This document shows positions 1 through 17,676 of a stretch of 17,676 nucleotides of DNA, piece after piece. Made by a program: the position numbers and the translations under genes. The DNA comes from a virus. Its lineage: Duplodnaviria; Heunggongvirae; Uroviricota; Caudoviricetes. Within the stretch, counting starts at the first letter, position 1. Each line of letters starts with the position of its first letter. Below the pieces are notes generated by a model that saw only the letters and a list, made by a program, of their open reading frames with translations, made no database searches and was not told the DNA's origin. The stretch lies in IMG/VR virus record IMGVR_UViG_3300045988_087939. One strand, 5' to 3'.

Positions 1-1
1 C

Positions 2-424: not shown

Positions 425-523
425 CAACCGAATGCGCCCCGCGCCAGGGCGGCACGCCGGTCAGTGAGGGTGAATCACCTGACACTGCACCGGCGTCCAC
501 CGCCCGACTTTTCAGAGGTAGTC

Positions 524-1236: not shown

Positions 1237-1239
1237 CGC

Positions 1240-1521
1240 ATGACAGCAGAAGAAAAAAGCGTCCTGTCGCTTTTCATGATTGGGGTGCTGATTGTTGTCG
1301 GCAAGGTGCTTGCCGGTGGTGAACCCATCACCCCGCGTCTGTTTATCGGGCGCATGTTGCTTGGTGGTTTTGTCTCGATGGTTGCCGGTGTTGTTCTGGT
1401 GCAGTTTCCTGACCTGTCACTGCCTGCGGTGTGCGGCATTGGCTCCATGCTGGGTATCGCCGGTTATCAGGTGATTGAGATTGCCATTCAGCGCCGCTTT
1501 AAGGGCAGGGGGAAACCGTAA
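1240..1521 (+). CDS. Y: Holin (P2 gpY-like)
   Basis: 93 aa with hydrophobic transmembrane stretches and a charged C-terminus (RRFKGRGKP). Lies directly upstream of the endolysin; its stop overlaps the K start (TAATG). Confidence 0.88.
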   Translation: MTAEEKSVLSLFMIGVLIVVGKVLAGGEPITPRLFIGRMLLGGFVSMVAGVVLVQFPDLSLPAVCGIGSMLGIAGYQVIEIAIQRRFKGRGKP

Positions 1522-2018
1522 TGCCGGTAATTAACACACATCAGAATATCGCCGCCTTTCTCGACATGCTGGCCGTGTCCGAAGGGACGGCGAATCATCC
1601 GCTGACGAAAAACCGGGGCTATGACGTGATAGTCACCGGACTGGACGGGAAGCCGGAAATTTTCACCGACTACAGTGACCACCCGTTCGCGTATGGCCGA
1701 CCGGCGAAGGTGTTTAACCGTCGCGGTGAAAAATCCACGGCCTCCGGTCGCTATCAGCAGCTTTACCTGTTCTGGCCGCATTACCGCAAACAGCTTGCCC
1801 TGCCGGATTTCAGTCCGTTGTCACAGGACAGACTCGCCATTCAGTTGATCCGCGAACGCGGTGCACTGGATGACATCCGGGAGGGACGCATTGAGCGCGC
1901 CATTTCACGCTGTCGCAATATCTGGGCGTCCCTGCCGGGTGCCGGTTACGGTCAGCGTGAGCATTCACTGGAAAAACTGGTCACCGTCTGGCGTACCGCT
2001 GGCGGCGTACCGGCTTAA
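1521..2018 (+). CDS. K: Endolysin / lysozyme (P2 gpK-like)
   Basis: 165 aa, the same length as P2 gpK, at the canonical position between holin and lysA. Confidence 0.88.
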   Translation: MPVINTHQNIAAFLDMLAVSEGTANHPLTKNRGYDVIVTGLDGKPEIFTDYSDHPFAYGRPAKVFNRRGEKSTASGRYQQLYLFWPHYRKQLALPDFSPLSQDRLAIQLIRERGALDDIREGRIERAISRCRNIWASLPGAGYGQREHSLEKLVTVWRTAGGVPA

Positions 2019-2032
2019 ACGGAGTAAACACC

Positions 2033-2458
2033 ATGAAGAAATTATCCCTTTCACTGATGCTGAACGTGTCGCTGGCGCTGATGCTGGCACTGTCCCTGAT
2101 TTACCCGCAGAGCGTGGCCGTCAGTTTTGTCGCTGCCTGGGCGATTCTGGTGACGGTTATCTGTGTGGTTGCCGGTGGTGTCGGCGTGTATGCCACTGAG
2201 TATGTGCTGGAACGCTACGGGCGGGAGCTGCCGCCGGAATCGCTGGCCGTGAAGATTGTCACGTCGCTGTTTTTGCAGCCGGTGCCGTGGCGCAGACGGG
2301 CGGCGGCTCTGGTAGTGGTGGTGGCGACGTTTATCTCGCTGGTCGCTGCCGGGTGGATTTTTACCGCGCTGATTTATCTTGTGGTGTCGCTGTTTTTCCG
2401 GCTGATACGTAAAGCCTGTCGTCAGCGTCTTGAGGGGCGGGAACTATGTCAAAGCTGA
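2033..2458 (+). CDS. lysA: Lysis regulatory membrane protein LysA-like
   Basis: 141 aa, very hydrophobic with multiple predicted transmembrane segments. Position after K, as in P2. ATG at 2033 is preceded by GGAG. Confidence 0.8.
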   Translation: MKKLSLSLMLNVSLALMLALSLIYPQSVAVSFVAAWAILVTVICVVAGGVGVYATEYVLERYGRELPPESLAVKIVTSLFLQPVPWRRRAAALVVVVATFISLVAAGWIFTALIYLVVSLFFRLIRKACRQRLEGRELCQS

Positions 2459-2871
2459 TGATTGTGCTGGTCGTGTTGCTATCGCTGGCGGTGGCCGGTC
2501 TGTTTCTGGCGAAGCATGAAAACGCCAGGCTGCGCGTCTCGCTGGACAGGGCGAACAATGTCGCCAGCGGGCAGCAGACGACCATCACCATGCTGAAAAA
2601 TCAGCTTCATGTTGCGCTCACCAGGGCAGACAAAAACGAGCTGGCGCAGGTGGCACTGCGTCAGGAACTGGAGAACGCCGCGAAGCGTGAAGCACAGCGC
2701 GAGAAAACCATCACGAGGTTACTTAATGAAAACGAAGATTTTCGCCGCTGGTACGGCGCTGACCTGCCTGATGCTGTGCGCCGGTTGCACCAGCGCCCGG
2801 CCTGCACCGACGCCAGTGATTGTCGCCAACGCCTGCCCGAAAGTGAGCCTTTGCCCGATGCCGGGCAGTGA
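2446..2871 (+). CDS. lysB: LysB-like inner-membrane spanin (Rz-like)
   Basis: 141 aa with an N-terminal transmembrane helix followed by a charged helical periplasmic region. Overlaps the lysA stop and contains the embedded lysC start. Confidence 0.82.
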   Translation: MSKLMIVLVVLLSLAVAGLFLAKHENARLRVSLDRANNVASGQQTTITMLKNQLHVALTRADKNELAQVALRQELENAAKREAQREKTITRLLNENEDFRRWYGADLPDAVRRLHQRPACTDASDCRQRLPESEPLPDAGQ

Positions 2872-3016
2872 CCCGCAGACGAACGGCGATTTAAGTGCCG
2901 ATATCCGGCAGCTTGAGAACGCGCTGGCACGCTGTGCCAGCCAGGTAAAAATGATTAAACACTGTCAGGACGAAAACGATGCTCAAACCCGACAGCCTGC
3001 GCAGGGCGCTGACTGA
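2726..3016 (+). CDS. lysC: LysC-like outer-membrane lipoprotein spanin (Rz1-like), start embedded in lysB in the +1 frame
   Basis: 96-aa product from ATG 2726: MKTKIFAAGTALTCLMLCAGC… with a lipoprotein-type signal and Cys, then a Pro-rich segment. Starts inside lysB and extends beyond it, as in P2. The listed ORF 2609-3016 has a non-ATG upstream extension that I do not use. Confidence 0.75.
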   Translation: MKTKIFAAGTALTCLMLCAGCTSARPAPTPVIVANACPKVSLCPMPGSDPQTNGDLSADIRQLENALARCASQVKMIKHCQDENDAQTRQPAQGAD

Positions 3017-3446
3017 TGCCGTCACGGTGCTGAAAACCAGCCCCGAGATGCTGCGGATATTCGTGGATAACGGGAGTATTGCCTCCACACTGGCGACGTC
3101 GCTGTCATTTGAAAAGCGTTACACGCTCAATGTCATTGTGACCGACTTTACCGGTGATTTTGACCTGCTCATCGTGCCGGTGCTGGCGTGGCTGCGGGAA
3201 AATCAGCCCGACATCATGACCACCGACGAAGGCCAGAAAAAGGGCTTCACGTTTTATGCGGACATCAACAATGACAGCAGCTTTGATATCAGTATCAGCC
3301 TGATGCTGACCGAGCGCACGCTGGTCAGTGAGGTTGACGGCGCGCTGCATGTGAAGAATATCCCGGAACCCACGCCGCCGGAGCCCGTCACCCGCCCGAT
3401 GGAGCTTTATATCAATGGCGAACTGGTGAGCAAGTGGGATGAATGA
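2979..3446 (+). CDS. R: Tail completion protein R (P2 gpR-like)
   Basis: 155 aa, the length of P2 gpR. Syntenic, overlaps the S start. Confidence 0.88.
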   Translation: MLKPDSLRRALTDAVTVLKTSPEMLRIFVDNGSIASTLATSLSFEKRYTLNVIVTDFTGDFDLLIVPVLAWLRENQPDIMTTDEGQKKGFTFYADINNDSSFDISISLMLTERTLVSEVDGALHVKNIPEPTPPEPVTRPMELYINGELVSKWDE

Positions 3447-3891
3447 GTTTAAGCGTTTTGAAGACCGGCTGACCGGACTTATTGAATCGCTGTCACCGTC
3501 AGGGCGTCGGCGACTGAGTGCCGAACTGGCGAAACGTCTGCGGCAGAGTCAGCAGCGTCGGGTGATGGCACAGAAAGCCCCGGACGGCACCCCCTACGTG
3601 CCACGCCAGCAGCAGAGCGCCAGAAAAAAGCCCGGTCGTGTTAAGCGAAAAATGTTTGCGAAACTTATCACCAGTCGTTTTTTGCATATCCGCGCCAGCC
3701 CGGAACAGGCATCAATGGAGTTTTACGGCGGGAAGTCACCGAAAATCGCCAGTGTGCATCAGTTTGGTCTGTCGGAAGAAAACCGGAAAGACGGTAAGAA
3801 AATTGATTATCCGGCGCGCCCTCTGCTCGGCTTTACCGGTGAGGATGTGCAGATGATTGAAGAGATTATCCTGGCTCACCTTGAGCGTTAG
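3439..3891 (+). CDS. S: Tail completion protein S (P2 gpS-like)
   Basis: 150 aa, the length of P2 gpS. Syntenic. Confidence 0.88.
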   Translation: MNEFKRFEDRLTGLIESLSPSGRRRLSAELAKRLRQSQQRRVMAQKAPDGTPYVPRQQQSARKKPGRVKRKMFAKLITSRFLHIRASPEQASMEFYGGKSPKIASVHQFGLSEENRKDGKKIDYPARPLLGFTGEDVQMIEEIILAHLER

Positions 3892-3910
3892 TTTTATCCA
3901 GGCAGAGGCT

Positions 3911-3947
3911 GATGCGCAATTAAACATTGAGCGGCCATGCTGGTCGC
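3911..3947. terminator. Stable hairpin between convergent genes S (+) and the cargo gene (-); possible bidirectional terminator
   Basis: Perfect 13-bp inverted repeat TAAACATTGAGCG (3911-3923) / CGCTCAATGTTTA (3935-3947) around an 11-nt spacer whose ends can add 3 more pairs. No strong U-tract on either side. Confidence 0.45.
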
Positions 3948-3962
3948 TCAATGTTTAGAGGT

Positions 3963-4748
3963 TTATGAGTGATTTTTATTTGATGCTTTGTATTCTAAAA
4001 CCTTCTTATTGGCGTAAAAGAATTTTGTATATGACAGGAATATAACCAGACCTGAAGTGAAATAGACGAGGGATAGTATTAATAATGCTTTTTTGTGACT
4101 GTTATTATCTTTAATCTCCTGGCTTAACCATTCGGAGTCCTCCTCGTTTAGCTGTAAGAGCTTATTGCAGGCGATTTCAGGAAGTGTGTCTTTTATAAAT
4201 ACGTTTTGCAGTCTCTTGCAATCGGCAAGGCTATAAGTTTTATTAAATTCAACTGCTTTATTTTTGAAGGATAAAAGAACTTTGTCACTATAAACATAGT
4301 ACATCATGTTTTTATATGGTATGCCTATGGCATCCCTTACTATAACGGATTGTTCGTTGTGTATGTAACATGCGAGGAGAATGTAAAAAATACTGGCCAG
4401 AATTACAATTATTGTTTTAATTATGTGTGGTGGTTTTGTTATGTCACCCCAGATGCGAGTAAGGAAAAAATACGATGTTTTTAGTTTTCCATCAATCAGT
4501 CCCTGCTGTATCATTCTCACATTTTCAATGCCTGATACATTGATTCCGTTAATTATTTTAAATAGTTGAATGTCGCGCCACTCGCGGTCAAGTCTTTTTA
4601 ATTTTTTGTCTGAATATCCAAAATTGAAATAATGTGCAATAAGCCTCATAAGGTTACTTTTACCAAAGCTAAAAAATGCTAATACTGCAAAGCTACAAAG
4701 GAAAAAAACGATTAGCCCCCACACATTAGTCACATTATAGCTGACCAT
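3963..4748 (-). CDS. AT-rich cargo (moron) gene: hypothetical 261-aa membrane protein with three predicted transmembrane segments, function unknown
   Basis: Reverse-strand ORF with a strong SD (AAGGAGAG) 4 nt upstream of the ATG. About 33% G+C in a sampled line against roughly 60% in flanking phage genes. Hydrophobic segments near residues 10-28, 103-123 and 220-240. Occupies the S-V junction, where P2 carries orf30. Confidence 0.8.
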   Translation of the reverse strand: MVSYNVTNVWGLIVFFLCSFAVLAFFSFGKSNLMRLIAHYFNFGYSDKKLKRLDREWRDIQLFKIINGINVSGIENVRMIQQGLIDGKLKTSYFFLTRIWGDITKPPHIIKTIIVILASIFYILLACYIHNEQSVIVRDAIGIPYKNMMYYVYSDKVLLSFKNKAVEFNKTYSLADCKRLQNVFIKDTLPEIACNKLLQLNEEDSEWLSQEIKDNNSHKKALLILSLVYFTSGLVIFLSYTKFFYANKKVLEYKASNKNHS

Positions 4749-4763
4749 TACGCTCTCCTTGGA

Positions 4764-4784
4764 TGTTGTCTGGTAGTTCTACAA
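4764..4784 (+). promoter_or_regulatory. Candidate late-promoter activator (Ogr-type) dyad upstream of V
   Basis: TGTTGTCTGGTAGTTCTACAA contains TGT-N11-ACA (4767-4783), about 50 nt upstream of a TATATAT -10-like element near 4808-4814. P2 late promoters carry a TGT-N12-ACA element near -55, so the spacing is off by one. Confidence 0.3.
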
Positions 4785-4831
4785 ATGAATCCAGATAGCA
4801 TAACTTTTATATATTGTGCAATCTCACATGC

Positions 4832-5467
4832 ATGAACACTCTCGCAAATATTCAGGAACTCGCGCGCGCACTGCGCAACATGATTCGCACCGGCATTATC
4901 GTCGAAACCGACCTTAACGCCGGTCGCTGCCGCGTGCAGACCGGCGGCATGTGCACCGACTGGCTTCAGTGGCTGACCCATCGCGCAGGACGTTCGCGCA
5001 CATGGTGGGCACCTTCCGTGGGGGAACAGGTGCTGATTCTGGCCGTGGGTGGTGAACTCGACACGGCGTTCGTTCTGCCGGGGATTTATTCCGGCGATAA
5101 CCCCTCGCCGTCTGTGTCGGCGGATGCCCTGCATATCCGTTTCCCTGACGGGGCGGTGATTGAATATGAACCCGAAACCAGTGCACTCACGGTAAGCGGA
5201 ATTAAAACGGCCAGCGTGACGGCTTCTGATTCTGTTACTGCCACGGTGCCGGTGGTCATGGTGAAAGCATCAACCCGCGTCACCCTGGACACCCCGGAGG
5301 TGGTCTGCACCAACAGGCTGATTACCGGCACGCTGGAAGTGCAGAAGGGCGGGACGATGCGCGGCAACATTGAACACACCGGCGGTGAACTCTCATCAAA
5401 CGGTAAGGTACTGCATACCCATAAACACCCCGGCGACAGCGGCGGCACAACCGGGAGTCCTTTATGA
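4832..5467 (+). CDS. V: Baseplate spike/assembly protein V (P2 gpV-like)
   Basis: 211 aa from ATG 4832, the length of P2 gpV; the listed ORF begins at an upstream TTG at 4814. Overlaps the W start (ATGA). Confidence 0.88.
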   Translation: MNTLANIQELARALRNMIRTGIIVETDLNAGRCRVQTGGMCTDWLQWLTHRAGRSRTWWAPSVGEQVLILAVGGELDTAFVLPGIYSGDNPSPSVSADALHIRFPDGAVIEYEPETSALTVSGIKTASVTASDSVTATVPVVMVKASTRVTLDTPEVVCTNRLITGTLEVQKGGTMRGNIEHTGGELSSNGKVLHTHKHPGDSGGTTGSPL

Positions 5468-5811
5468 CAGCGCGTTATCTCGGAATGAATCGCAGTGATG
5501 GCCTGACTGTCACTGACCTTGAGCATATCAGCCAGAGTATCGGCGATATCCTGCGCACACCGGTCGGCTCACGGGTGATGCGTCGTGATTACGGCTCGTT
5601 GCTGGCATCAATGATTGCCCAGCCGCAGACCCCGACGCTTGAGTTGCAGATTAAGGTCGCCTGTTACATGGCGGTGCTGAAATGGGAACCCCGCGTCACC
5701 CTGTCATCCGTCACCACTGAGCGCAGTTTTGACGGGCGAATGACGGTCACGTTAACCGGCCAGCACAACGACACCGGCCAGCCACTTTCATTAACCATCC
5801 CTGTGAGTTGA
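5464..5811 (+). CDS. W: Baseplate wedge protein W (P2 gpW-like)
   Basis: 115 aa, the length of P2 gpW. Syntenic. Confidence 0.88.
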   Translation: MTARYLGMNRSDGLTVTDLEHISQSIGDILRTPVGSRVMRRDYGSLLASMIAQPQTPTLELQIKVACYMAVLKWEPRVTLSSVTTERSFDGRMTVTLTGQHNDTGQPLSLTIPVS

Positions 5812-5815
5812 AACC

Positions 5816-6724
5816 ATGCCGATTATCGACCTGAACCAGCTACCCGCACCGGATGTGGTCGAGGAGCTGGACTTTGAAAGCATTCTCGCTGAACGCAAGG
5901 CGACACTGATTTCCCTTTACCCGGAAGATCAGCAGGAGGCGGTCGCCCGTACCCTGACACTGGAATCTGAGCCTCTCGTCAAACTGCTGGAAGAAAATGC
6001 TTATCGTGAGCTTATCTGGCGTCAGCGTGTGAATGAGGCCGCACGGGCGGTGATGCTGGCCTGTGCCGCCGGTAATGACCTTGATGTGATTGGTGCCAAT
6101 TACAACACCACGCGCCTGACTATCACCCCGGCAGATGATTCGACCATTCCGCCGACACCGGCAGTGATGGAATCTGACACAGATTATCGTCTGCGTATTC
6201 AGCAGGCTTTTGAGGGCTTAAGCGTCGCCGGGTCAGTGGGAGCCTATCAGTATCATGGTCGCAGTGCTGACGGGCGTGTCGCGGATATTTCTGTCACCAG
6301 TCCGTCTCCTGCCTGTGTCACCATCTCTGTGCTGTCACGTGAAAATAACGGCGTCGCATCCGAAGACCTGCTGGCTGTGGTGCGTAACGCCCTTAATGGC
6401 GAGGACGTCAGGCCGGTGGCCGACCGCGTGACCGTGCAGTCTGCCGCCATCGTTGAATACCAGATAAACGCCACGCTTTACCTTTACCCTGGTCCCGAAA
6501 GCGAACCCATCCGCGCTGCCGCTGTGAAAAAGCTGGAAGCGTATATCACGGCACAGCACCGGCTGGGGCGCGACATCCGTCTGTCTGCCATTTATGCCGC
6601 TTTGCATGTGGAAGGTGTGCAGCGTGTCGAACTGGCTGCACCACTGGCCGACATCGTGCTCAACAGTACGCAGGCGTCTTTCTGTACCGAATACCGCGTC
6701 GTGACCGGAGGCTCGGATGAGTGA
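5816..6724 (+). CDS. J: Baseplate assembly protein J (P2 gpJ-like)
   Basis: 302 aa, the length of P2 gpJ. Overlaps the I start by 8 nt. Confidence 0.88.
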   Translation: MPIIDLNQLPAPDVVEELDFESILAERKATLISLYPEDQQEAVARTLTLESEPLVKLLEENAYRELIWRQRVNEAARAVMLACAAGNDLDVIGANYNTTRLTITPADDSTIPPTPAVMESDTDYRLRIQQAFEGLSVAGSVGAYQYHGRSADGRVADISVTSPSPACVTISVLSRENNGVASEDLLAVVRNALNGEDVRPVADRVTVQSAAIVEYQINATLYLYPGPESEPIRAAAVKKLEAYITAQHRLGRDIRLSAIYAALHVEGVQRVELAAPLADIVLNSTQASFCTEYRVVTGGSDE

Positions 6725-7247
6725 TTCGCGACTGCTGCCGACCGGCTCATCACCGCTTGAGGTCGCCGCCGCAAAAGCCTGTGCGGAAATTGAAAAAACG
6801 CCGGTCAGTATTCGTGAGCTGTGGAACCCGGACACCTGTCCGGCAAATCTGCTGCCGTGGCTGGCGTGGGCGTTTTCGGTCGACAGGTGGGATGAAAAGT
6901 GGCCGGAAGCGACAAAACGCGCCGTTATCCGCGATGCGTATTTCATCCACTGTCATAAAGGCACAATAGGTGCAATCCGGCGTGTGGTGGAGCCGCTCGG
7001 CTATCTCATCAACGTGACGGAGTGGTGGGAAAACAGTGACCCGCCCGGCACCTTCCGGCTTGATATTGGTGTACTGGAAAGCGGCATCACAGAGGCAATG
7101 TATCAGGAAATGGAACGGCTGATTGCTGATGCCAAACCTGCAAGCCGCCACCTTATTGGCCTGAACATTACCCGGGACATTCCCGGCTACCTGTTCGCCG
7201 GTGGTGTGGCTTACGACGGCGATGTAATTACGGTTTACCCCGGATAA
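6717..7247 (+). CDS. I: Baseplate protein I (P2 gpI-like)
   Basis: 176 aa, the length of P2 gpI. Syntenic. Confidence 0.88.
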   Translation: MSDSRLLPTGSSPLEVAAAKACAEIEKTPVSIRELWNPDTCPANLLPWLAWAFSVDRWDEKWPEATKRAVIRDAYFIHCHKGTIGAIRRVVEPLGYLINVTEWWENSDPPGTFRLDIGVLESGITEAMYQEMERLIADAKPASRHLIGLNITRDIPGYLFAGGVAYDGDVITVYPG

Positions 7248-7257
7248 GTGAGGAATA

Positions 7258-9576
7258 ATGAGCACAAAATTCAGAACCGTTATCACCACTGCCGGTGCAG
7301 CAAAGCTGGCAGCGGCAACCGCACCGGGAGGGCGGAAGGTCAACATTACCACGATGGCCGTCGGGGATGGCGGTGGTAAATTGCCTGTCCCGGATGCCGG
7401 ACAGACCGGGCTTATCCATGAAGTCTGGCGACATGCGCTGAACAAAATCACCCTGGACAAACGAAACAGTAATTATATTATCGCAGAGCTGGTTATTCCG
7501 CCGGAGGTGGGCGGTTTCTGGATGCGTGAGCTTGGCCTGTACGATGATGCGGGAACGCTAATTGCCGTGGCGAACATGGCTGAAAGTTATAAACCCGCTC
7601 TTGCCGAAGGCTCAGGGCGTTCGCAGACCTGCCGCATGGTCATCATCGTCAGCAGTGTGGCCTCAGTGGAGCTGACCATTGACACCACAACGGTGATGGC
7701 AACGCAGGATTACGTTGATGACAAAATTGCAGAGCATGAACAGTCACGACGTCACCCGGACGCCTCGCTGACCGCAAAAGGTTTTACTCAGTTAAGCAGT
7801 GCAACCAACAGCGCGTCTGAAACACTGGCCGCAACGCCGAAAGCGGTAAAGGCCGCCTATGACCTTGCTAACGGGAAATATACCGCACAGGACGCTACCA
7901 CAGCGCGAAAAGGTCTTGTCCAGCTCAGTAGTGCCACCAACAGCACGTCTGAAACGCTCGCCGCAACACCAAAAGCGGTTAAGGCAGCGTATGACCTTGC
8001 TAACGGTAAATATACTGCACAGGACGCCACCACAGTGCGAAAAGGTCTTATCCAGCTCAGTAGCGTCACCAACAGCGATTCTGAAACGCTTGCGGCAACG
8101 CCAAAGGCGGTAAAGGCAGCGTATGACCTTGCTAACGGGAAATACACTGCACAGGATGCCACCACGGCGCGGAAAGGGCTTGTCCAGCTCAGTAGCGCCA
8201 CCAACAGTGATTCTGAAACGCTGGCCGCAACACCAAAAGCGGTGAAGTCTGCCTATGACAATGCTGAAAAACGTCTTCAGAAAGATCAGAACGGTGCGGA
8301 TATTCCGGGAAAGGATACCTTCACGAAAAATATCGGTGCCTGTCGTGCTTATAGCGGCGCTTTGAGCACTGAAGCCGGAAACTGGACAACCGCTCAGTTT
8401 ATTGAATGGCTGGATTCCCGTGGTGCATTTAATCATCCGTACTGGATGTGCAAAGGCTCCTGGTCATATGCAAATAACAAAATCATTACGGATACCGGAT
8501 GTGGTGATATCCACCTGGCTGGTTGTGTCGTCGAGGTCATGGGAACTAAATCTGCAATCACTATCCGAGTGACCACGCCGACAACATCAAGCGGTGGCGG
8601 TACAACCAGCGCACAATTCACTTACATTAATCATGGGGACGGCTACTCCCCCGGCTGGCGTCGTGACTGGAATCGTCAGGGCGACGCAATGACCGGAACG
8701 ATTAATCAGGACGGTGGAAGCCAGAATGCCTATATGTCTACGGCCTTATGTTCAGGCACAAGAGGCGGCAAAAAATATCTCAGAAAGTTTCGTGGTGGAG
8801 AAGGAGACACTATCTGGCATGAAACAGTACAGGGCGGGGTAGTTCGTTGGGCGACTGGTAATACTGATGCTCAGGAAGAATTATCACTCAGCTCCGCTTA
8901 TGGTCTCCGTTCAAGAGGTGAGATTACATCACTCAGTGCTAATGGTCTGCGCATTGCTTATGGCAATTATGGATTCTTTATCAGGAATGATGGCGGCAGC
9001 ACATATTTAATGCTGACGGCCTCTGGCGATAAATTTGGGACATGGAACGGCTTAAGACCGCTGACTATCAATAACGCCAATGGCGGAGTGTCAATGGGGC
9101 ATGGCCTGAGTGTTACAGGTGATATTGTCTCAAGTACCAAAGTACGTGCCGGTAGCGGGAAAAAGTTCACGGTCAGCAGCAGCAATACATCCACGAAGGA
9201 AGCCGCATTCAATTTGTGGGGAAACTCAAGTCGTCCTGTGGTGGCTGAATTAGGTGATGATGCAGGCTGGCATTTTTACAGTCAGAGAAATACAGATAAC
9301 AGCATCACTTTTGCTGTTAACGGGCAGGTATCACCATCTAACTATGGCAACTTTGATTCACGCTATGTCCGGGATATCCGGCTTGGTGGTGCTGCCACAT
9401 ACAAACCTGCGAACAATGGTATGACATGGACACATCAGGCACCGTCCGGGTGTGTATATTCCGGCATTATTGTTCAGGATACCGGCTCAAACTCTGCCGA
9501 TAACATTGGTGGCGTATATTACAGACCGGTGCAGAAATACATTAACGGGACTTGGTATAACGTGGCGCAGGTATAA
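7258..9576 (+). CDS. H: Tail fiber protein (P2 gpH-like) with a conserved N-terminal domain, four tandem fibre repeats and a divergent receptor-binding region
   Basis: 772-aa ORF with SD GTGAGGAA. The N-terminal ~170 aa and the C-terminal tail (…IQKYINGTWYNVAQV) resemble P2 gpH as I recall it. Four 44-aa repeats (…QLSSATNSxSETLAATPKAVKAAYDLANGKYTAQDATTARK). Central part is lower in G+C (about 42-43% in sampled lines). Confidence 0.88.
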   Translation: MSTKFRTVITTAGAAKLAAATAPGGRKVNITTMAVGDGGGKLPVPDAGQTGLIHEVWRHALNKITLDKRNSNYIIAELVIPPEVGGFWMRELGLYDDAGTLIAVANMAESYKPALAEGSGRSQTCRMVIIVSSVASVELTIDTTTVMATQDYVDDKIAEHEQSRRHPDASLTAKGFTQLSSATNSASETLAATPKAVKAAYDLANGKYTAQDATTARKGLVQLSSATNSTSETLAATPKAVKAAYDLANGKYTAQDATTVRKGLIQLSSVTNSDSETLAATPKAVKAAYDLANGKYTAQDATTARKGLVQLSSATNSDSETLAATPKAVKSAYDNAEKRLQKDQNGADIPGKDTFTKNIGACRAYSGALSTEAGNWTTAQFIEWLDSRGAFNHPYWMCKGSWSYANNKIITDTGCGDIHLAGCVVEVMGTKSAITIRVTTPTTSSGGGTTSAQFTYINHGDGYSPGWRRDWNRQGDAMTGTINQDGGSQNAYMSTALCSGTRGGKKYLRKFRGGEGDTIWHETVQGGVVRWATGNTDAQEELSLSSAYGLRSRGEITSLSANGLRIAYGNYGFFIRNDGGSTYLMLTASGDKFGTWNGLRPLTINNANGGVSMGHGLSVTGDIVSSTKVRAGSGKKFTVSSSNTSTKEAAFNLWGNSSRPVVAELGDDAGWHFYSQRNTDNSITFAVNGQVSPSNYGNFDSRYVRDIRLGGAATYKPANNGMTWTHQAPSGCVYSGIIVQDTGSNSADNIGGVYYRPVQKYINGTWYNVAQV
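7780..8259 (+). repeat. Tandem 132-bp (44-codon) repeat, about 3.6 copies, inside the tail fiber gene
   Basis: Units begin at 7780, 7912, 8044 and 8176 (the last is partial). Protein-level identity is near-complete while the DNA differs at many wobble positions. Confidence 0.85.
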
Positions 9577-9579
9577 TTT

Positions 9580-10107
9580 ATGCAGCATTTGATAAATATA
9601 ACGGCAGGTAATCCAAAAACGGTTGAACAATATCAATTGACAAAAGACTTTGATGTTGTCTGGTTTTTTTCAGAAGATGGTAAGAACTGGTACGAAGAAC
9701 AAAAGTATTTTGCTGATGACACGCTAAAAATAGCGTACGACAAAGATAATATCATCCGCTATGTGGAAAAGGATGTGACAGCTATCAGACCGGATGGATT
9801 AAGTGTTGTTGAAGTGGCGGATATTACTGCTAACCGACGGGCGGACATTTCAGGGAACTGGATGTTTAAGGACGGCAAAGTGATTAAACGCATTTATACG
9901 GCAGAGGAATTGCAGCAGCAGGCAGAAAACCGGAAAGCCAGACTTCTTGCAGATGCTGAATCCGTGATTTTGCCGCTGGAGCGTGCTGTCAGACTGAACA
10001 TGGCAACAGATGAGGAGCGTAGCCGACTGGAAGCATGGGAACGCTACAGCGTTCTGGTCAGTCGTGTGGATCCTGCAAATCCTGAATGGCCGGAAATGCC
10101 GCAATAA
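9580..10107 (+). CDS. G: Tail fiber assembly protein / chaperone (P2 gpG-like)
   Basis: 175 aa, the length of P2 gpG. Immediately follows H; the C-terminal part resembles tail-fiber-assembly proteins. The N-terminal part is AT-rich (about 32% in one sampled line). Confidence 0.85.
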
Positions 10108-10141
10108 GTTGTATGATCTCTGGAGTGAGCAAACGTATCTA

Positions 10142-10183
10142 TGGCACAGAGTTAAGCCTAATCTGACAGTACGCTCTGTGCCA
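10142..10183. repeat. Inverted repeat/hairpin just downstream of G
   Basis: TGGCACAGAG (10142-10151) pairs with CTCTGTGCCA (10174-10183), a 10-bp stem with a 22-nt spacer, about 35 nt after the G stop. No U-tract follows. Confidence 0.3.
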
Positions 10184-10310
10184 GGAGCGGATACTTTAAT
10201 GTTCTATCACTATTGGATATGATTATCATGAAACTACCTTAAATTAACATCTTGCTAAAGATGCAACCAAAAGTTACCTTCAGGGAATTGTGAGCTGATA
10301 AGAAGAATAG

Positions 10311-10339
10311 TTGTATCTAATAAGATGTTGAGTTTTAAT
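10311..10339 (+). promoter_or_regulatory. Candidate sigma70-type promoter for the ATPase-Toprim cargo gene
   Basis: TTGTAT (10311-10316), 17-nt spacer, TTTAAT (10334-10339), about 30 nt upstream of the ATG in an AT-rich intergenic region. A strong SD (AAGGAGGG) follows at about 10354-10361. Confidence 0.3.
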
Positions 10340-10369
10340 TAAACTCCATGCGAACAAGGAGGGCAAAAA

Positions 10370-11983
10370 ATGAGCAATTCATTTTCAATTACACTACCTA
10401 CAAAAGAAAAAGACCTAGCGGAAATAGAGACTAATCAGAGCGTGCTTATTATCGGTGCGAATGGCTCTGGAAAGTCTCGCCTTGGGACATGGATGGATCT
10501 AAAATCTCCTCAAAGAAATATTGTTCATCGTATTTCCGCTCAGCGGGCTTTAGCGATGCCTGACCATACAACACCAACTTCGCTTCAACAAGCACAGAAT
10601 AATTTACTCTATGGAATTGAAAATTTGGAAGGGTCGGAACTACTTTGGTATAAAGAGAATTATCGCTGGGGAAGTAAACCTGCCATATCATCATTAAATG
10701 ATTATGGTAAATTAATGGTGTATCTCTTTTCAGACAAAATTGAAGAAAACTCGAAATATATTGAATTAGTTAAATCTTCAGAAAAAAGAATTGAACCAAC
10801 GACGACTAAATTAGATAAAATTAAATATATTTGGGAAAAAACATTACCTCACCGAGAGCTTGTTTTAGGCGGTTTGACAATTCAAACACGAGCAAAAGGA
10901 AATAACGAGGCTGTCTATAACCCCTCGGAAATGAGCGACGGTGAGCGAGTTATTTTCTATCTGATTGGGCAATGTCTTGCAGCACCCGAAAATGGAATTA
11001 TTGTCATAGACGAGCCAGAAATTCATCTTCACAAATCTGTACAAGTTCCATTATGGAAGGATATAGAAAAACTCCGACCTGATTGCCTGTTTGTATATAT
11101 GACTCATGATACTGATTTTGCTGCAGCACTGCATGATGCAAAGAAAATCTGGTTAAAAAGTTATGATGGTTCCAGTTGGGATTGGGAAGATGTTCCCGAT
11201 GTCGAAGGCCTACCAGAAAGTTTATTAATTGAAATATTGGGTAGTAGAAAACCAATTGTTTTTGTTGAGGGGGAAAATGGAAGCTATGATGTATCCCTTT
11301 ATCGTGCTGTGTTAAATAGTTATCTAGTGATACCATCTGGTTCTTGTAGTCAAGTAATACAAAATGTTAAAGCTCTAAGAGCCAGTGAAAAACTCCATTA
11401 TATGGAAGTTTTTGGTATTATTGATAGGGATAGACGTGTTGAAAATGAAATTCAATCGCTTCTGGAATACGGTATTTATACTCTAAGCGTGGCTGAAGTC
11501 GAAAATCTCTTTTGCGTTCCGGAAGTTATAACTTTAGTTAGCGAACGATTAGTCAGGAATCCAGATAAAGATCTACAATCAGTTAAAGATTTTGTGTTCC
11601 GTAAAATATCCTCAGAGCTGGATACTCAGATTTCACTGCGTGTGGCTGGCGAAATTAAATTCATGCTTAATTGTTTTGATGAAAAAGCAAAAGGGGTCGA
11701 TGCTCTTAGTAGAGCTCTTGAGTTGTTGACGTCACAAATTAATGTTAAAGAGCTTTATGATGAAAGTTTATCTCTGTTTAATAATGCAGTTGAGAAACGT
11801 GATTATCTTCTTGCATTAAAACTTTATAACAGGAAAAGCCTTTCATCCCAAGTAAGTAAGCATCTGGGGCTGGCTAATGGACAGCTTGCTGAATTAGTGG
11901 TCAGGATGGCTAATAATGAAAGTGGAGAGTCAATGAGAAATGCTCTCAGACCATATTTTGGTGAGTTTTCGAGTAAAATATAG
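10370..11983 (+). CDS. Cargo gene in the G-FI (Z/fun) hotspot: ABC-type ATPase fused to a Toprim/DUF4435-like putative nuclease domain; candidate single-gene anti-phage defence protein (OLD-like or fused PARIS-like)
   Basis: 537 aa. Walker A GANGSGKS (aa 29-36, nt 10454-10477); signature-like MSDGER (aa 188-193); Walker B IIVIDEPE followed by HLH (aa 210-221); H-loop-like YMTHD (aa 243-247). C-terminal half has Toprim-like motifs: IVFVEGENGSYD (aa 296-307), IIDRDRR (aa 350-356) and VAEVEN (aa 374-379), then a helical tail. G+C is about 25-43% in sampled lines. Confidence 0.8.
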   Translation: MSNSFSITLPTKEKDLAEIETNQSVLIIGANGSGKSRLGTWMDLKSPQRNIVHRISAQRALAMPDHTTPTSLQQAQNNLLYGIENLEGSELLWYKENYRWGSKPAISSLNDYGKLMVYLFSDKIEENSKYIELVKSSEKRIEPTTTKLDKIKYIWEKTLPHRELVLGGLTIQTRAKGNNEAVYNPSEMSDGERVIFYLIGQCLAAPENGIIVIDEPEIHLHKSVQVPLWKDIEKLRPDCLFVYMTHDTDFAAALHDAKKIWLKSYDGSSWDWEDVPDVEGLPESLLIEILGSRKPIVFVEGENGSYDVSLYRAVLNSYLVIPSGSCSQVIQNVKALRASEKLHYMEVFGIIDRDRRVENEIQSLLEYGIYTLSVAEVENLFCVPEVITLVSERLVRNPDKDLQSVKDFVFRKISSELDTQISLRVAGEIKFMLNCFDEKAKGVDALSRALELLTSQINVKELYDESLSLFNNAVEKRDYLLALKLYNRKSLSSQVSKHLGLANGQLAELVVRMANNESGESMRNALRPYFGEFSSKI

Positions 11984-12134
11984 TTATACAGAGTGCATAA
12001 TACTTATCGTGACTGTGGTTGGATGATGTGTGTGGTTCATGTGTCTGCTCCTCGCTCACAGCAGGCTGTCAGATTTGATAGCGTTTGGGCTATGTAAATT
12101 GTCAGTTGGAAAATGAGTGAGTGCAAGTCAGGAC

Positions 12135-12162
12135 AGGCGGGCGAATTGCCCGCCTTTTCTTT
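12135..12162 (+). terminator. Rho-independent terminator downstream of the cargo ATPase-Toprim gene
   Basis: GC-rich stem GGCGGGC (12136-12142) / GCCCGCC (12148-12154) with a 5-nt loop, followed by TTTTCTTT (12155-12162). Confidence 0.7.
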
Positions 12163-12165
12163 ATC

Positions 12166-12190
12166 TGTTGTTTCATCCACTGACCAGACA
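12166..12190 (+). promoter_or_regulatory. Candidate late-promoter activator site upstream of FI (P_F-like)
   Basis: TGTTGTTTCATCCACTGACCAGACA begins with the same TGTTGT hexamer seen upstream of V and ends in ACA, about 70-90 nt upstream of the FI ATG. Spacing does not match TGT-N12-ACA exactly. Confidence 0.25.
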
Positions 12191-12258
12191 GGTCAAATAG
12201 CGTCTCAGGCACTGCCCAATAGAAAATAGTTGCACCCATTAACCACGGAGTTAAACGG

Positions 12259-13449
12259 ATGAGTGACTATCATCACGGCGTGCAGGTGCTGGAGATTAAC
12301 GACGGCACCCGCGTCATTTCCACCGTATCCACCGCCATTGTCGGCATGGTCTGCACGGCCAGCGATGCGGATGCGGAAATCTTCCCCCTCAATAAACCGG
12401 TGCTGATTACCAATGTGCAGAGCGCAATTGCAAAGGCCGGTAAAAAAGGCACGCTGGCGGCATCGTTGCAGGCCATCGCCGACCAGTCAAAACCGGTCAC
12501 CGTTGTCGTGCGTGTGGAAGACGGCACCGGCGAAGACGAAGAAACGAAACTCGCGCAGACTGTTTCCAATATCATCGGAACCACCGACGAAAACGGTCAG
12601 TACACCGGACTGAAAGCCCTGCTGGCGGCGGAGTCGGTAACCGGTGTTAAACCGCGTATTCTTGGTGTGCCGGGGCTGGATACCAAAGAGGTGGCTGTTG
12701 CACTGGCATCAGTCTGTCAGAAGCTGCGCGCTTTCGGGTATATCAGCGCATGGGGCTGTAAAACCATTTCTGAGGTGAAAGCCTACCGCCAGAATTTCAG
12801 CCAGCGTGAGCTGATGGTCATCTGGCCGGATTTCCTCGCATGGGATACGGTCACCAGTACCACCGCCACCGCGTATGCCACCGCACGTGCGCTGGGTCTG
12901 CGTGCCAAAATCGACCAGGAGCAGGGCTGGCATAAAACGCTGTCCAACGTCGGGGTGAACGGTGTTACCGGCATCAGCGCATCTGTATTTTGGGATTTGC
13001 AGGAGTCCGGCACCGATGCTGACCTGCTTAACGAGTCAGGCGTCACAACACTGATTCGCCGTGACGGTTTCCGCTTCTGGGGTAACCGTACCTGCTCTGA
13101 TGACCCGCTGTTCTTCTTTGAAAACTACACCCGCACCGCGCAGGTGCTGGCCGACACGATGGCTGAGGCGCACATGTGGGCGGTGGACAAGCCCATCACC
13201 GCAACGCTGATTCGCGACATCGTTGACGGCATCAATGCCAAATTCCGTGAGCTGAAAACAAACGGCTATATCGTGGATGCGACCTGCTGGTTCAGCGAAG
13301 AATCCAACGATGCGGAAACCCTCAAGGCCGGAAAACTGTATATCGACTACGACTATACCCCGGTGCCTCCTCTTGAAAACCTGACCCTGCGCCAGCGTAT
13401 CACCGATAAATATCTGGCAAATCTGGTCACCTCGGTTAACAGCAATTAA
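12259..13449 (+). CDS. FI: Contractile tail sheath protein (P2 gpFI-like)
   Basis: 396 aa, the length of P2 gpFI. Syntenic; high G+C. Confidence 0.9.
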   Translation: MSDYHHGVQVLEINDGTRVISTVSTAIVGMVCTASDADAEIFPLNKPVLITNVQSAIAKAGKKGTLAASLQAIADQSKPVTVVVRVEDGTGEDEETKLAQTVSNIIGTTDENGQYTGLKALLAAESVTGVKPRILGVPGLDTKEVAVALASVCQKLRAFGYISAWGCKTISEVKAYRQNFSQRELMVIWPDFLAWDTVTSTTATAYATARALGLRAKIDQEQGWHKTLSNVGVNGVTGISASVFWDLQESGTDADLLNESGVTTLIRRDGFRFWGNRTCSDDPLFFFENYTRTAQVLADTMAEAHMWAVDKPITATLIRDIVDGINAKFRELKTNGYIVDATCWFSEESNDAETLKAGKLYIDYDYTPVPPLENLTLRQRITDKYLANLVTSVNSN

Positions 13450-13461
13450 GGAGCCTGACCG

Positions 13462-13980
13462 ATGGCAATGCCGCGCAAACTCAAGTTAATGAACGTCTTT
13501 CTGAACGGCTACAGCTATCAGGGCGTTGCAAAGTCCGTCACGCTGCCAAAACTGACCCGTAAGCTCGAAAACTATCGCGGTGCGGGGATGAACGGCAGCG
13601 CACCGGTAGACCTCGGCCTTGATGACGATGCCCTGTCAATGGAGTGGTCGCTCGGTGGTTTCCCGGATTCGGTTATCTGGGAGCTTTACGCAGCAACCGG
13701 TGTGGATGTCGTGCCGATTCGTTTTGCAGGCTCTTACCAGCGCGACGATACCGGCGAAACGGTGGCCGTCGAGGTGGTCATGCGTGGACGTCAGAAAGAA
13801 ATCGACACCGGCGAGGGTAAACAGGGAGAAGACACCGAGTCGAAAATCTCTGTGGTCTGCACCTATTTCCGGCTGACGATGGACGGTAAGGAGCTGGTCG
13901 AAATCGACACCATCAACATGATTGAGAAGGTGAACGGCGTCGACCGGCTGGAGCAACACCGCCGAAATATCGGCCTGTGA
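13462..13980 (+). CDS. FII: Tail tube protein (P2 gpFII-like)
   Basis: 172 aa, the length of P2 gpFII. Immediately follows the sheath gene. Confidence 0.9.
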   Translation: MAMPRKLKLMNVFLNGYSYQGVAKSVTLPKLTRKLENYRGAGMNGSAPVDLGLDDDALSMEWSLGGFPDSVIWELYAATGVDVVPIRFAGSYQRDDTGETVAVEVVMRGRQKEIDTGEGKQGEDTESKISVVCTYFRLTMDGKELVEIDTINMIEKVNGVDRLEQHRRNIGL

Positions 13981-13987
13981 TTTTCAT

Positions 13988-14008
13988 CCGGTCAGCCTGG
14001 CTGACCGG
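13988..14008 (+). terminator. Hairpin between FII and E; possible partial terminator or RNA processing structure
   Basis: CCGGTCAG (13988-13995) / CTGACCGG (14001-14008), an 8-bp stem with a 5-nt loop, right after the FII stop. Only TT follows, so it is weak as an intrinsic terminator. Confidence 0.3.
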
Positions 14009-14036
14009 TTAACCCTGATTCAGAAGTGAGAAAACC

Positions 14037-14312
14037 ATGAACAAAGAAAATGTGATTACCCTGGACAATCCGGTCAAGCGTGGTGAGCAGGTTATCGAAC
14101 AGGTCACGCTGATGAAACCCAATGCCGGGACGCTGCGCGGTGTCAGTCTGGCTGCGGTCGCAAACTCCGAAGTCGATGCACTGATTAAGGTGCTGCCGCG
14201 CATGACGGCACCGATGCTGACCGAGCAGGAAGTCGCCGCGCTGGAACTGCCTGACCTTGTGGCGCTGGCCGGTAAGGTGGTCGGTTTTTTGTCGCCGAAC
14301 TCGGTGCAGTAA
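14037..14312 (+). CDS. E: Tail assembly chaperone E (P2 gpE-like), the zero-frame product
   Basis: 91 aa, the length of P2 gpE. Contains the slippery heptamer near its 3' end. Confidence 0.88.
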   Translation: MNKENVITLDNPVKRGEQVIEQVTLMKPNAGTLRGVSLAAVANSEVDALIKVLPRMTAPMLTEQEVAALELPDLVALAGKVVGFLSPNSVQ

Positions 14313-14464
14313 CGTTCCCGAAAAATCTGTCGGTCGATGACCTGATGGCGGATGTGGCAGTGATATTTCACTGGGCGTGGTCTTGCGTATATCCCATGAG
14401 CCTGACCGAACTCATCACATGGCGCGAAAAGGCGCTCCGGCGAAGCGGAAACACGAATGAGTAA
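14037..14464 (+). CDS. E+E': Tail assembly chaperone E+E' made by a programmed -1 ribosomal frameshift
   Basis: Slippery T_TTT_TTG at 14285-14291 in the E frame. The -1 frame is open from 14291 to a TAA at 14462-14464, encoding VAELGAVTFPKNLSVDDLMADVAVIFHWAWSCVYPMSLTELITWREKALRRSGNTNE, and overlaps the T start. Confidence 0.75.
14285..14291 (+). promoter_or_regulatory. -1 programmed frameshift slippery heptamer (T TTT TTG)
   Basis: X_XXY_YYZ heptamer in the E reading frame, at the same relative place as the P2 E/E' shift. Confidence 0.7.
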
Positions 14465-15572
14465 CAATGTAAAATTACAGGTATTGCTCAGGGCTGTTGA
14501 CCAGGCATCCCGCCCGTTTAAATCCATCCGCACAGCGAGCAAGTCGCTGTCGGGGGATATCCGGGAAACACAAAAATCACTGCGCGAGCTGAATGGTCAC
14601 GCATCCCGTATTGAGGGATTTCGCAAGACCAGCGCACAGCTCGCCGTGACTGGTCATGCACTTGAAAAGGCACGGCAGGAGGCCGAAGCCCTTGCCACAC
14701 AGTTTAAAAACACTGAACGTCCGACCCGTGCTCAGGCGAAAGTGCTGGAATCCGCAAAGCGTGCGGCGGAGGACTTACAGGCGAAATATAACCGCCTGAT
14801 AGATTCCGTTAAACGCCAGCAGCGGGAACTGGCCGCTGTGGGAATTAATACCCGCAATCTTGCACATGATGAGCAGGGACTGAAAAACCGTATCAGTGAA
14901 ACCACCGCACAGCTTAACCGTCAGCGTGATGCGCTGGCGCGTGTCAGTGCGCAACAGGCAAAACTTAACGCAGTAAAACAGCGTTATCAGGCCGGAAAGG
15001 AACTGGCCGGAAATATGGCCTCAGTGGGCGCTGCCGGTGTGGGGATTGCGGCGGCGGGAACGATGGCCGGAGTTAAGTTGCTGATGCCCGGTTATGAGTT
15101 TGCGCAGAAAAACTCAGAATTGCAGGCCGTGCTCGGAGTGGCAAAAGACTCCGCCGAAATGACCGCACTACGCAAACAGGCGCGCCAGCTCGGCGACAAT
15201 ACCGCCGCCTCGGCGGATGATGCGGCCGGTGCACAGATAATCATCGCGAAAGCGGGTGGGGATGTTGATGCCATTCAGGCGGCAACGCCGGTCACGCTGA
15301 ATATGGCGCTGGCGAACCGCCGCACGATGGAAGAAAACGCCGCCCTGCTGATGGGGATGAAATCCGCCTTTCAGCTTTCAAACGATAAGGTCGCTCATAT
15401 CGGGGATGTTCTCTCCATGACGATGAACAAAACCGCCGCCGATTTTGACGGCATGAGCGATGCGCTGACCTATGCCGCACCTGTGGCAAAAAATGCCGGT
15501 GTCAGCATTGAAGAAACCGCCGCAATGGTCGGGGCGCTGCATGATGCAAAAATCACAGGCTCAATGTGTTAA
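14457..15572 (+). CDS. T: Tail tape measure protein (P2 gpT-like), N-terminal fragment; reading frame ends prematurely
   Basis: 371-aa ORF, helical and Ala/Gln-rich as tape measure proteins are. Ends at TAA 15570-15572; the protein continues in another frame (next feature). Confidence 0.8.
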   Translation: MSNNVKLQVLLRAVDQASRPFKSIRTASKSLSGDIRETQKSLRELNGHASRIEGFRKTSAQLAVTGHALEKARQEAEALATQFKNTERPTRAQAKVLESAKRAAEDLQAKYNRLIDSVKRQQRELAAVGINTRNLAHDEQGLKNRISETTAQLNRQRDALARVSAQQAKLNAVKQRYQAGKELAGNMASVGAAGVGIAAAGTMAGVKLLMPGYEFAQKNSELQAVLGVAKDSAEMTALRKQARQLGDNTAASADDAAGAQIIIAKAGGDVDAIQAATPVTLNMALANRRTMEENAALLMGMKSAFQLSNDKVAHIGDVLSMTMNKTAADFDGMSDALTYAAPVAKNAGVSIEETAAMVGALHDAKITGSMC

Positions 15573-16918
15573 GCCGCCTGCAGGTACCGACGGGAAAAGC
15601 ATGGGATGCTCTCAAAGAGCTTGGAGTGAAAACCTCAGACAGCAAAGGAAACTCCCGGTCAATATTTACCATTCTGAAAGAAATGCAGGCCAGTTTTGAG
15701 AAAAACCGGCTCGGTACTGCCCAGCAGGCTGAATACATGAAAACTATTTTCGGGGAGGAGGCCAGCTCAGCCGCCGCCGTGCTGATGACTGCCGCCTCAA
15801 CCGGAAAGCTGGACAAACTGACCGCTGCGTTTAAAGCCTCAGACGGGAAGACCGCCGAGCTGGTAAATATCATGCAGGACAACCTAGGCGGTGACTTTAA
15901 AGAGTTTCAGTCCGCTTATGAGGCGGTGGGGACTGACCTGTTTGACCAGCAGGAAGGCGCGCTGCGTAAGCTCACGCAGACGGCCACAAAGTATGTGTTA
16001 AAACTCGACGGCTGGATACAGAAAAACAAATCACTGGCGTCAACCATCGGCATCATTGTCGGTGGTGCACTGGCGCTGACTGGTGTCATCAGTGCCATTG
16101 GCCTCGTAGCCTGGCCGGTTATCACCGGCATTAATGCCATCATCGCGGCAGCAGGCGCAATGGGTGCAATCTTCACGACGGTTGGCAGTGCCGTTATGAC
16201 GGCCATCGGGGCGATTAGCTGGCCGGTTGTGGCTGGGGGGGGCGGCCATTGCGGCCGGGGGGTGGTTTTAGTGCCTGCCGCCATTGTCGCCGGGGCGTTG
16301 CTTATCCGTAAATACTGGGAGCCTGTCAGCGCATTCTTTGGCGGTGTGGTTGAAGGGCTGAAAGCGGCATTTGCGCCGGTGAGGGAGCTGTTCACGCCAC
16401 TGAAACCGGTGTTTGACTGGCTGGGCGAAAAGTTACAGGCCGCGTGGCAGTGGTTTAAAAATCTGATTGCCCCGGTTAAAGCCACACAGGACACCCTGAA
16501 CCGTTGCCGTGACACGGGGGTCATGTTCGGGCAGGCACTGGCTGACGCGCTGATGCTGCCGCTTAATGCGTTCAACAAACTGCGCAGCGGTATTGACTGG
16601 GTACTGGAAAAACTCGGGGTTATCAACAAAGAGTCAGACACACTTGACCAGACCGCCGCCAGAACTCATGCCGCCACGTATGGCACCGGTGGTTATATTC
16701 CGGCGACCAGCTCTTATGCATGTTATCAGGCTTATCAGCCGGTTACGGCACCGGCTGGCCGCTCTTATGTGGACCAGAGTAAAAACGAATATCACATCAG
16801 CCTGACGGGTGGTACTGCGCCGGGGACACAGCTTGACCGCCAGTTACAGGATGCGCTCGAAAAATACGAGCGGGATAAACGTGCGCGCGCCCGTGCCAGC
16901 ATGATGCATGACGGTTAA
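15566..16918 (+). CDS. T: Tail tape measure protein (P2 gpT-like), C-terminal fragment in a different frame
   Basis: 450-aa ORF whose frame is open from 15545 and has no ATG near its start. The two fragments together total about 819 aa, close to the ~815 aa I recall for P2 gpT. Contains Gly/Ala-rich hydrophobic segments. Confidence 0.75.
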   Translation: MLSRLQVPTGKAWDALKELGVKTSDSKGNSRSIFTILKEMQASFEKNRLGTAQQAEYMKTIFGEEASSAAAVLMTAASTGKLDKLTAAFKASDGKTAELVNIMQDNLGGDFKEFQSAYEAVGTDLFDQQEGALRKLTQTATKYVLKLDGWIQKNKSLASTIGIIVGGALALTGVISAIGLVAWPVITGINAIIAAAGAMGAIFTTVGSAVMTAIGAISWPVVAGGGGHCGRGVVLVPAAIVAGALLIRKYWEPVSAFFGGVVEGLKAAFAPVRELFTPLKPVFDWLGEKLQAAWQWFKNLIAPVKATQDTLNRCRDTGVMFGQALADALMLPLNAFNKLRSGIDWVLEKLGVINKESDTLDQTAARTHAATYGTGGYIPATSSYACYQAYQPVTAPAGRSYVDQSKNEYHISLTGGTAPGTQLDRQLQDALEKYERDKRARARASMMHDG

Positions 16919-16932
16919 GGAGGTGACGAAAA

Positions 16933-17412
16933 ATGATGCTCGCGTTAGGTATGTTTGTTTTTATGCGCCAGACGCTGCCACACCAGACCATGCAGCGTGA
17001 ATCAGATTATCGCTGGCCGTCAAATTCCCGTATCGGCAAACGGGATGCCTTTCAATTTCTCGGTGTGGGTGAGGAAAACATCACGCTTGCCGGTGTGCTT
17101 TATCCCGAACTGACCGGCGGAAAGCTGACGATGACCACGCTCAGGCTGATGGCTGAGGAAGGCCGGGCGTGGCCGTTGCTGGATGGCACTGGCATGATTT
17201 ACGGCATGTATGTCATCAGCAAGGTGAGTGAAACAGGGAGTATTTTCTTTGCAGACGGCACACCCCGAAAAATTGATTTTACGCTGTCGCTCACCCGCGT
17301 TGATGAATCACTGGCCGCGCTGTATGGCGATATCGGTAAACAGGCGGAATCGCTCATCGGTAAGGCTGGCAGTATGGCGACCAGATTCACGGGGATGACG
17401 GGGGCGGGATAA
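16933..17412 (+). CDS. U: Tail protein U (P2 gpU-like)
   Basis: 159 aa, the length of P2 gpU. SD AAGGAGGTG precedes it. Its stop overlaps the D start. Confidence 0.88.
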   Translation: MMLALGMFVFMRQTLPHQTMQRESDYRWPSNSRIGKRDAFQFLGVGEENITLAGVLYPELTGGKLTMTTLRLMAEEGRAWPLLDGTGMIYGMYVISKVSETGSIFFADGTPRKIDFTLSLTRVDESLAALYGDIGKQAESLIGKAGSMATRFTGMTGAG

Positions 17413-17676
17413 TGTTGGATGCGCTGACATTTGATGCAGGCAGTACGCTGACGCCGGATTACATGCTGATGCTCGACAGCAGGGATATTACCGGCAATAT
17501 CAGCGACCGTCTGATGAGCATGACCCTGACGGATAACCGGGGCTTTGAGGCTGACCAGCTTGATATTGAACTGAACGATGCCGACGGGCAGGTCGGGCTG
17601 CCGGTTCGTGGCGCTGTCCTGACGGTGTATATCGGCTGGGGAGGGGTGTTGCTTGGTTGGTCACGGCAGGAATTTC
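17412..17676 (+). CDS. D: Tail protein D (P2 gpD-like), N-terminal part; 3' end lies outside the window
   Basis: ATG at 17412 overlaps the U stop (TAATG). The frame is open to the window end (MLDALTFDAGSTLTPDYMLMLDSRDITGNISDRLMSMTLTDNRGFEADQLDIELNDADGQ…). Position matches P2 gene D. Confidence 0.8.
   Translation, partial: MLDALTFDAGSTLTPDYMLMLDSRDITGNISDRLMSMTLTDNRGFEADQLDIELNDADGQVGLPVRGAVLTVYIGWGGVLLGWSRQEF

Follow-up and report, generated by a model that had tools for sequence, protein, structure and literature searches.

Gene T of phage P2 encodes the tail length tape measure protein gpT (NP_046782.1). In P2, as in pro147, it is a single open reading frame (ORF) of 2,448 nt (815 aa) placed immediately after E/E'. 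These two upstream genes use a programmed -1 frameshift at the heptamer T_TTT_TTG (PMC3091744). Disrupted copies of T are likewise found in otherwise P2-like prophages of E. coli. In the truncated allele P0032 (strain KTE6) a 1-nt deletion at T position 981 shortens the protein to 336 aa, and the same truncated T occurs in four IMG/VR loci.

The DNA analysed here (hereafter the window, 17,676 bp) is one complete low-coverage metagenomic contig from JGI/IMG. Its ORF layout and its matches to 97 phage records assign it to an E. coli prophage of the P2-like (Peduovirus) group, whose late and tail genes it covers in the order M', L, X, Y, K, lysA, lysB/C, R, S, a 261-aa minus-strand gene, V, W, J, I, H, G, a 537-aa insert, FI, FII, E/E', T, U and D'. 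The succession FI, FII, E(E'), T, U, D is identical in the window, P2, pro147 and the prophage of E. coli MB07081 (NZ_CM129880.1), and T accordingly occupies the position of a P2-type tape measure gene, between the tail chaperone genes E/E' and U-D. The E/E' frameshift site is intact in the window (T_TTT_TTG, 14285-14291, plus strand), and both E and E+E' are translated as in P2. According to the P2 annotation this is the operon's genuine frameshift site; it is located 1.3 kb upstream of the break in T that is the subject of this work.

The 537-aa gene (10370-11983, plus strand) lies between the tail-fibre assembly gene G and the sheath gene FI, which is the Z/fun position of P2. It is a single-gene fusion of AriA and AriB of the PARIS anti-phage system (PADLOC AriAB, E 1.9e-187), with the Pfam domains AAA_21 and DUF4435; PMC9122126 refers to PARIS fusions of this single-gene kind. 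In the assembly collection, 443 blocks list exactly this protein, and the insert led us to ten closely related prophages. The 261-aa gene (3963-4748, minus strand) between S and V is kept in all related prophages. It had no match in Pfam or PADLOC and corresponds only to phrog_2407, a family of unknown function; it could be a moron or a defence candidate. In one relative (L012, GCA_016231085.1) positions 1-12587 correspond to window positions 370-12956, the prophage stops inside FI just past the PARIS gene, and host efflux genes follow the breakpoint: this prophage is a truly decayed remnant that has retained its defence gene. Many distinct, overlapping P2-like contigs with 95-99% mutual identity are present in the IMG/VR dataset 3300045988, which suggests a pooled catalogue of many assemblies rather than one metagenome assembly.

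In the window, two frames are needed to read the P2-type gene T (14457-16918), as the ORF list and its translation demonstrate. The N-terminal piece (14457-15572, plus strand) comprises 371 codons plus TAA; frame 0 starts from ATG 14457, continues through ...ALHDAKITGSMC and ends with ...KITGSMC and TAA 15570-15572. The C-terminal piece (15566-16918, plus strand; 450 codons) is in the -1/+2 frame. This second frame is shut by TGA 15542-15544, is open from 15545 (CKNHRLNVLSRLQVPTGKAW...) to 16918, and has its first start at GTG 15566. An earlier note on this DNA had described T as interrupted and distributed over two overlapping frames, the first ending at 15570-15572 and the other open from 15545, and translation confirms these coordinates.

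Both pieces pass the Pfam gathering score (33.2 bits) for PhageMin_Tail (PF10145). Residues 239-370 of the N-terminal piece cover profile positions 1-133 (97 bits) and residues 1-63 of the C-terminal piece cover positions 141-201 (33.6 bits), while an intact relative spans positions 1-201 in a single stretch (153 bits). The match of both pieces to one domain indicates that a single gene is interrupted within its conserved core and that the split is no accident of ORF layout. Nucleotide identity to P2 gene T is 96-97%, and 96.1% across the whole gene, yet the single ORF of about 815 codons that characterises a P2-type tape measure is here replaced by 371 and 450 codons in two frames.

The cause of the break is evident from the alignments to P2, pro147, E. 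coli MB07081 and two further contigs treated below (UViG_3300045988_123538 and NODE_278). Each displays a 22-nt gap after position 15565 with clean flanks. The segment missing at the junction 15565/15566 is GGCGGGGACGGGAAGCCGTGCC, which represents the codons A-G-T-G-S-R-A plus 1 nt; relatives read ...GGCTCAAT GGCGGGGACGGGAAGCCGTGCC GTGTTAAGCC... at this site. At the protein level GSM[AGTGSRA]VLSRL is deprived of seven codons plus one base, inside the PhageMin_Tail core. A short out-of-frame deletion in the motif GSMAGT...LSRL had been among the suggestions of the earlier note and proved exactly right, and the alignment to intact tape measure genes of P2-like phages, which it had recommended, located the exact lesion.

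The same alignments contradict the other suggestion, that a single-nucleotide indel, e.g., a homopolymer error in the A5 run (15548-15552) or a change at ATGTG, shifted the frame. A 1-nt change within 15545-15570 would formally fuse both ORFs, but the sequence is identical to the relatives on both sides of the 22-nt gap, the A5 run included, and a single-base indel is therefore excluded; we attribute practically no probability to it. The length of about 819 aa predicted for the restored ORF likewise does not hold, as the uninterrupted protein has 815 aa in canonical relatives and 827 aa in NODE_278. Slippage between direct repeats or across a hairpin was considered as the origin of the deletion and rejected. 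The microhomology at the junction is limited to 1 nt (G), no hairpin in the deleted 22-mer is better than shuffled controls (z -0.9 to -1.6), and the junction thus carries no signature of replication slippage.

An overlap of two frames in a tail gene operon also raises the question whether the break is decoded on purpose, either by a programmed -1 frameshift in 15545-15572 or by stop-start coupling resulting in a two-piece tape measure. The downstream T frame is indeed -1 relative to the upstream frame, the A5 run falls within the overlap, and the C-terminal piece begins exactly at the P2 residues VLSRLQ. However, the overlap 15545-15572 does not contain any X_XXY_YYZ heptamer. The only in-frame heptamer, A_AAA_AAT at 15488, lies upstream of the -1-frame stop TGA 15542, and rescue of the frame is therefore impossible there. 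A shift at the A5 run would exchange the conserved ITGSMAGTGSRA for NHRLN. Shuffled sequences fold as well as 15540-15595 does (z +0.68), i.e., a stimulatory downstream structure is absent, and the two-frame layout is not conserved, because T is one ORF in 97 of 108 relatives and in the other assembly of this strain. Without a usable slippery site, structure or conservation, the programmed frameshift was rejected, which agrees with the earlier note, where the lack of a slippery heptamer had been taken to make such a shift unlikely. As for the coupling, GTG 15566 overlaps TAA 15570 (GTGTTAA) and an AGG is found 7-9 nt upstream, so that a restart is conceivable. It would generate two polypeptides (residues 1-370 and about 379-827) that together form a working tail-length ruler, in which case the deletion would be real and the gene alive. 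We regard this restart as highly improbable, and assign an equally slight chance to purposeful decoding of the break in general.

Comparisons with the nearest relatives provide insight into the origin of the deletion. Over 370-17639 a single SNP and four local anomalies distinguish the window from the MB07081 prophage; with one or two SNPs set aside, the two agree across about 16 kb. The window's rare SNPs at 58 and 5618 are shared by UViG_3300045988_123538 and by NODE_278 of the ENA assembly ERZ1745635 (NODE_278_length_58385_cov_5.08; 58,385 bp, coverage 5), the latter found via the rare gpW variant that results from SNP 5618. A literature search on dataset 3300045988 and assembly ERZ1745635 gave no result. 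In NODE_278 the same prophage sits within an E. coli chromosome, at the same site as in MB07081, beside trhP. Over 4457-17639 it differs from the window only in a 13-bp patch, described below, and in the 22-bp deletion. UViG_3300045988_123538 equals the window at 42-14374 and 15566-16279. The PARIS gene is common to the window and all three of these relatives.

The 22 bp missing from the window are present in NODE_278, UViG_3300045988_123538 and MB07081, which also differ from it in having the canonical 13-mer in E' and canonical sequence at the positions of the window ends. Gene T is uninterrupted in NODE_278 and encodes 827 aa, compared to 815 aa in MB07081. Returning the 22 bp to the window in silico results in an 827-aa protein for which the exact match on record is that of NODE_278. 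The same strain is accordingly represented by two other assemblies, NODE_278 and UViG_3300045988_123538, in which the lesion does not occur.

The deletion is accompanied by further anomalies. At the left end of the window, positions 1-41 display 16 mismatches to MB07081, UViG_3300045988_123538 and NODE_278, all three of which are canonical here; the mismatches are C-biased and densest at the tip. At the right end, positions 17638-17676 copy the true gene D sequence with increasing decay and a bias to G. A scan of IMG/VR for this end garbage resulted in no match. Because the errors are denser toward the ends and the bias is strand-symmetric (C left, G right), both ends may be interpreted as uncorrected 3' read tails.

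A scrambled patch is located in the E' frame (14375-14387, plus strand), where 13 bp are replaced at the same length, GCGTGGTCTTGCG for CCGCCATCAGAAC, with 9 mismatches. The patch is G/T-biased, changes PPSEL to AWSCV in gpE+E', and is private to the window; neither IMG/VR nor the complete E. coli genomes contain it. A small inversion was rejected, since the reverse complement of the canonical 13-mer does not give the patch. The patch breaks a perfect 10-bp inverted repeat of the relatives (CTGATGGCGG at 14343-14352 / CCGCCATCAG).

The third kind of anomaly is found within T itself. Positions 16236-16276 (plus strand) repeat the 35-41 nt that follow them, offset by 1 nt, rich in G and with many errors, after which the true sequence restarts. 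The net effect of this pseudo-duplication is an addition of 36 bases (16241-16276), in frame, which encode GGGGHCGRGVVLVP. The identity of the 36-bp segment to the adjacent sequence is high at first and then falls along its length. In NODE_278 the segment is internal and contributes to the 827-aa T, whereas in UViG_3300045988_123538, the one IMG/VR contig that contains it, it forms the last bases, the contig ending immediately after it at window position 16279. None of the 5,426 complete E. coli genomes, the GTDB representatives and the JGI metagenomes contains the segment, and the junction between insertion and true sequence had no match in the IMG/VR scan. A natural allele of T was considered here and judged improbable, given this absence, the uniform length of 812-815 aa among 97 intact T genes and the decay that resembles a read tail, although the segment is internal in NODE_278. 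It is probably read-tail garbage that was joined back to the true sequence.

The window, NODE_278 and UViG_3300045988_123538 have the rare SNPs and the odd 36-bp segment in common, the latter being terminal in one of them, which suggests that they derive from the same sample, or even from the same reads. Localised biological hypermutation was also considered as a common source of all patches. We regard it as very unlikely, as the signature is found at both contig ends, the G/C bias is strand-symmetric and the sister contigs are canonical.

The rarity of the lesion was assessed against several collections. A 21-mer across the junction had no match in the GTDB species genomes (185,579), IMG/VR or the JGI metagenomes, and neither the 5,426 complete E. 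coli genomes nor the 50,697 phage records contained a junction 40-mer (20 nt per side). Homologous T genes are present in 1,599 of these 5,426 genomes, and the spacing is intact in the best 40 of the 1,599. The 371-aa and 450-aa products are each found once among about 15 billion proteins, only on a JGI/IMG contig of 17,676 bp; as this is the length of the window, the window is a whole contig. Look-ups of both exact fragments in a gene-position index gave no hit. The lesion, a 22-bp deletion, is unique to the window contig; the recurrence in independent genomes or assemblies that marks an inherited pseudogene was not observed.

Broken T genes as such are commonplace in prophages and draft assemblies, as evident from about 108 other P2-like T loci, of which 97 are intact (812-815 aa only) and 11 disrupted. 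Some of the disruptions are indels of a single nucleotide; the others are a 20-bp deletion, one of about 1 kb, and insertions 2.2-2.6 kb long. The 336-aa allele P0032 is found on 247 contigs, complete E. coli chromosomes among them; it is therefore real and inherited, and constitutes a widespread T pseudogene lineage.

We consider the frame break in T to be a probable artefact of assembly or sequencing. This reading is the most likely one because the deletion is found only in a single, error-ridden contig, while the gene is intact in two assemblies of the same strain. Further signs of error in this contig are both ends, the 13-bp patch and the 36-bp duplicate; the lesion sits together with at least three other anomalies within 3.3 kb, and their technical origin is evident or probable. 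The deletion would then belong to the same class of errors. A mis-join where reads were very sparse or missing may have caused the loss of the 22 bp; this loss shifts the frame inside the PhageMin_Tail core and leaves ORFs of 371 and 450 codons. On the other hand, a clean 22-bp deletion with error-free flanks is atypical of short-read base-calling errors, which counts against an artefact.

We also have to consider that the 22-bp deletion is real, i.e., a very recent, private inactivating mutation in the lysogen or in a subpopulation, by which T became a pseudogene. The error-free flanks are consistent with such an event, as are the frequency of broken T among prophages (11 of about 108 other loci), the example of a truncated allele that is inherited, and the relative L012, which lost everything downstream of its PARIS gene. 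T is annotated in P2 as an essential tail gene. A recent mutation that is real would become conceivable if the three contigs did not share a sample. Against this stand the singleton status of the lesion in every collection searched, the intact gene in both other assemblies of the strain, the three or more error patches in close proximity, and the microhomology of a single nucleotide at the junction. A real deletion is thus possible but clearly the less likely interpretation. The earlier note had left the choice between a tail-defective, cryptic prophage and an assembly error. The assembly error is now best supported and the tail-defective prophage less favoured, as two assemblies of the same strain are intact; the 36-bp pseudo-insertion, the 13-bp patch and the end garbage, all missed at that time, have changed the balance between the two.

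The consequences for the biology of the prophage depend on the reading. Should the sister contigs represent the prophage correctly, its T is an ordinary tape measure gene with one ORF and nothing about it is unusual. If the deletion is real, the prophage could excise, replicate, package and lyse, but not build tails; it would have been disabled only recently, with its PARIS defence gene still in place, which would be an ordinary and very recent step in prophage decay. None of the three readings (artefact, private deletion, purposeful decoding) is novel. A naive annotation of the window would result in a tail-defective or cryptic prophage, though the same strain elsewhere has an intact T. Recognition of such signatures, namely end garbage, a scrambled patch and a degenerate duplicate, prevents the over-calling of pseudogenes and frameshifts in metagenomic viral catalogues.

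Compared to known systems, the T gene of the window shares with P2 gpT its position in the operon, from E/E' to U-D, and its Pfam domain. It differs from P2 gpT by the lack of 22 bp (AGTGSRA plus 1 nt), hence its division into 371 and 450 codons, and by the extra G-rich segment of 36 bp, which is lacking in P2 and in all complete E. coli genomes searched. The programmed -1 site of E/E' belongs to the same operon and its T_TTT_TTG is intact in the window; unlike this site, the break in T is devoid of a slippery heptamer and not conserved in relatives. Another parallel is provided by the inherited T pseudogenes of P2-like prophages in E. coli such as P0032, in which the tape measure gene of an otherwise P2-like prophage is likewise frameshifted, but that allele is dispersed over its 247 contigs, whereas the lesion of the window is found once.
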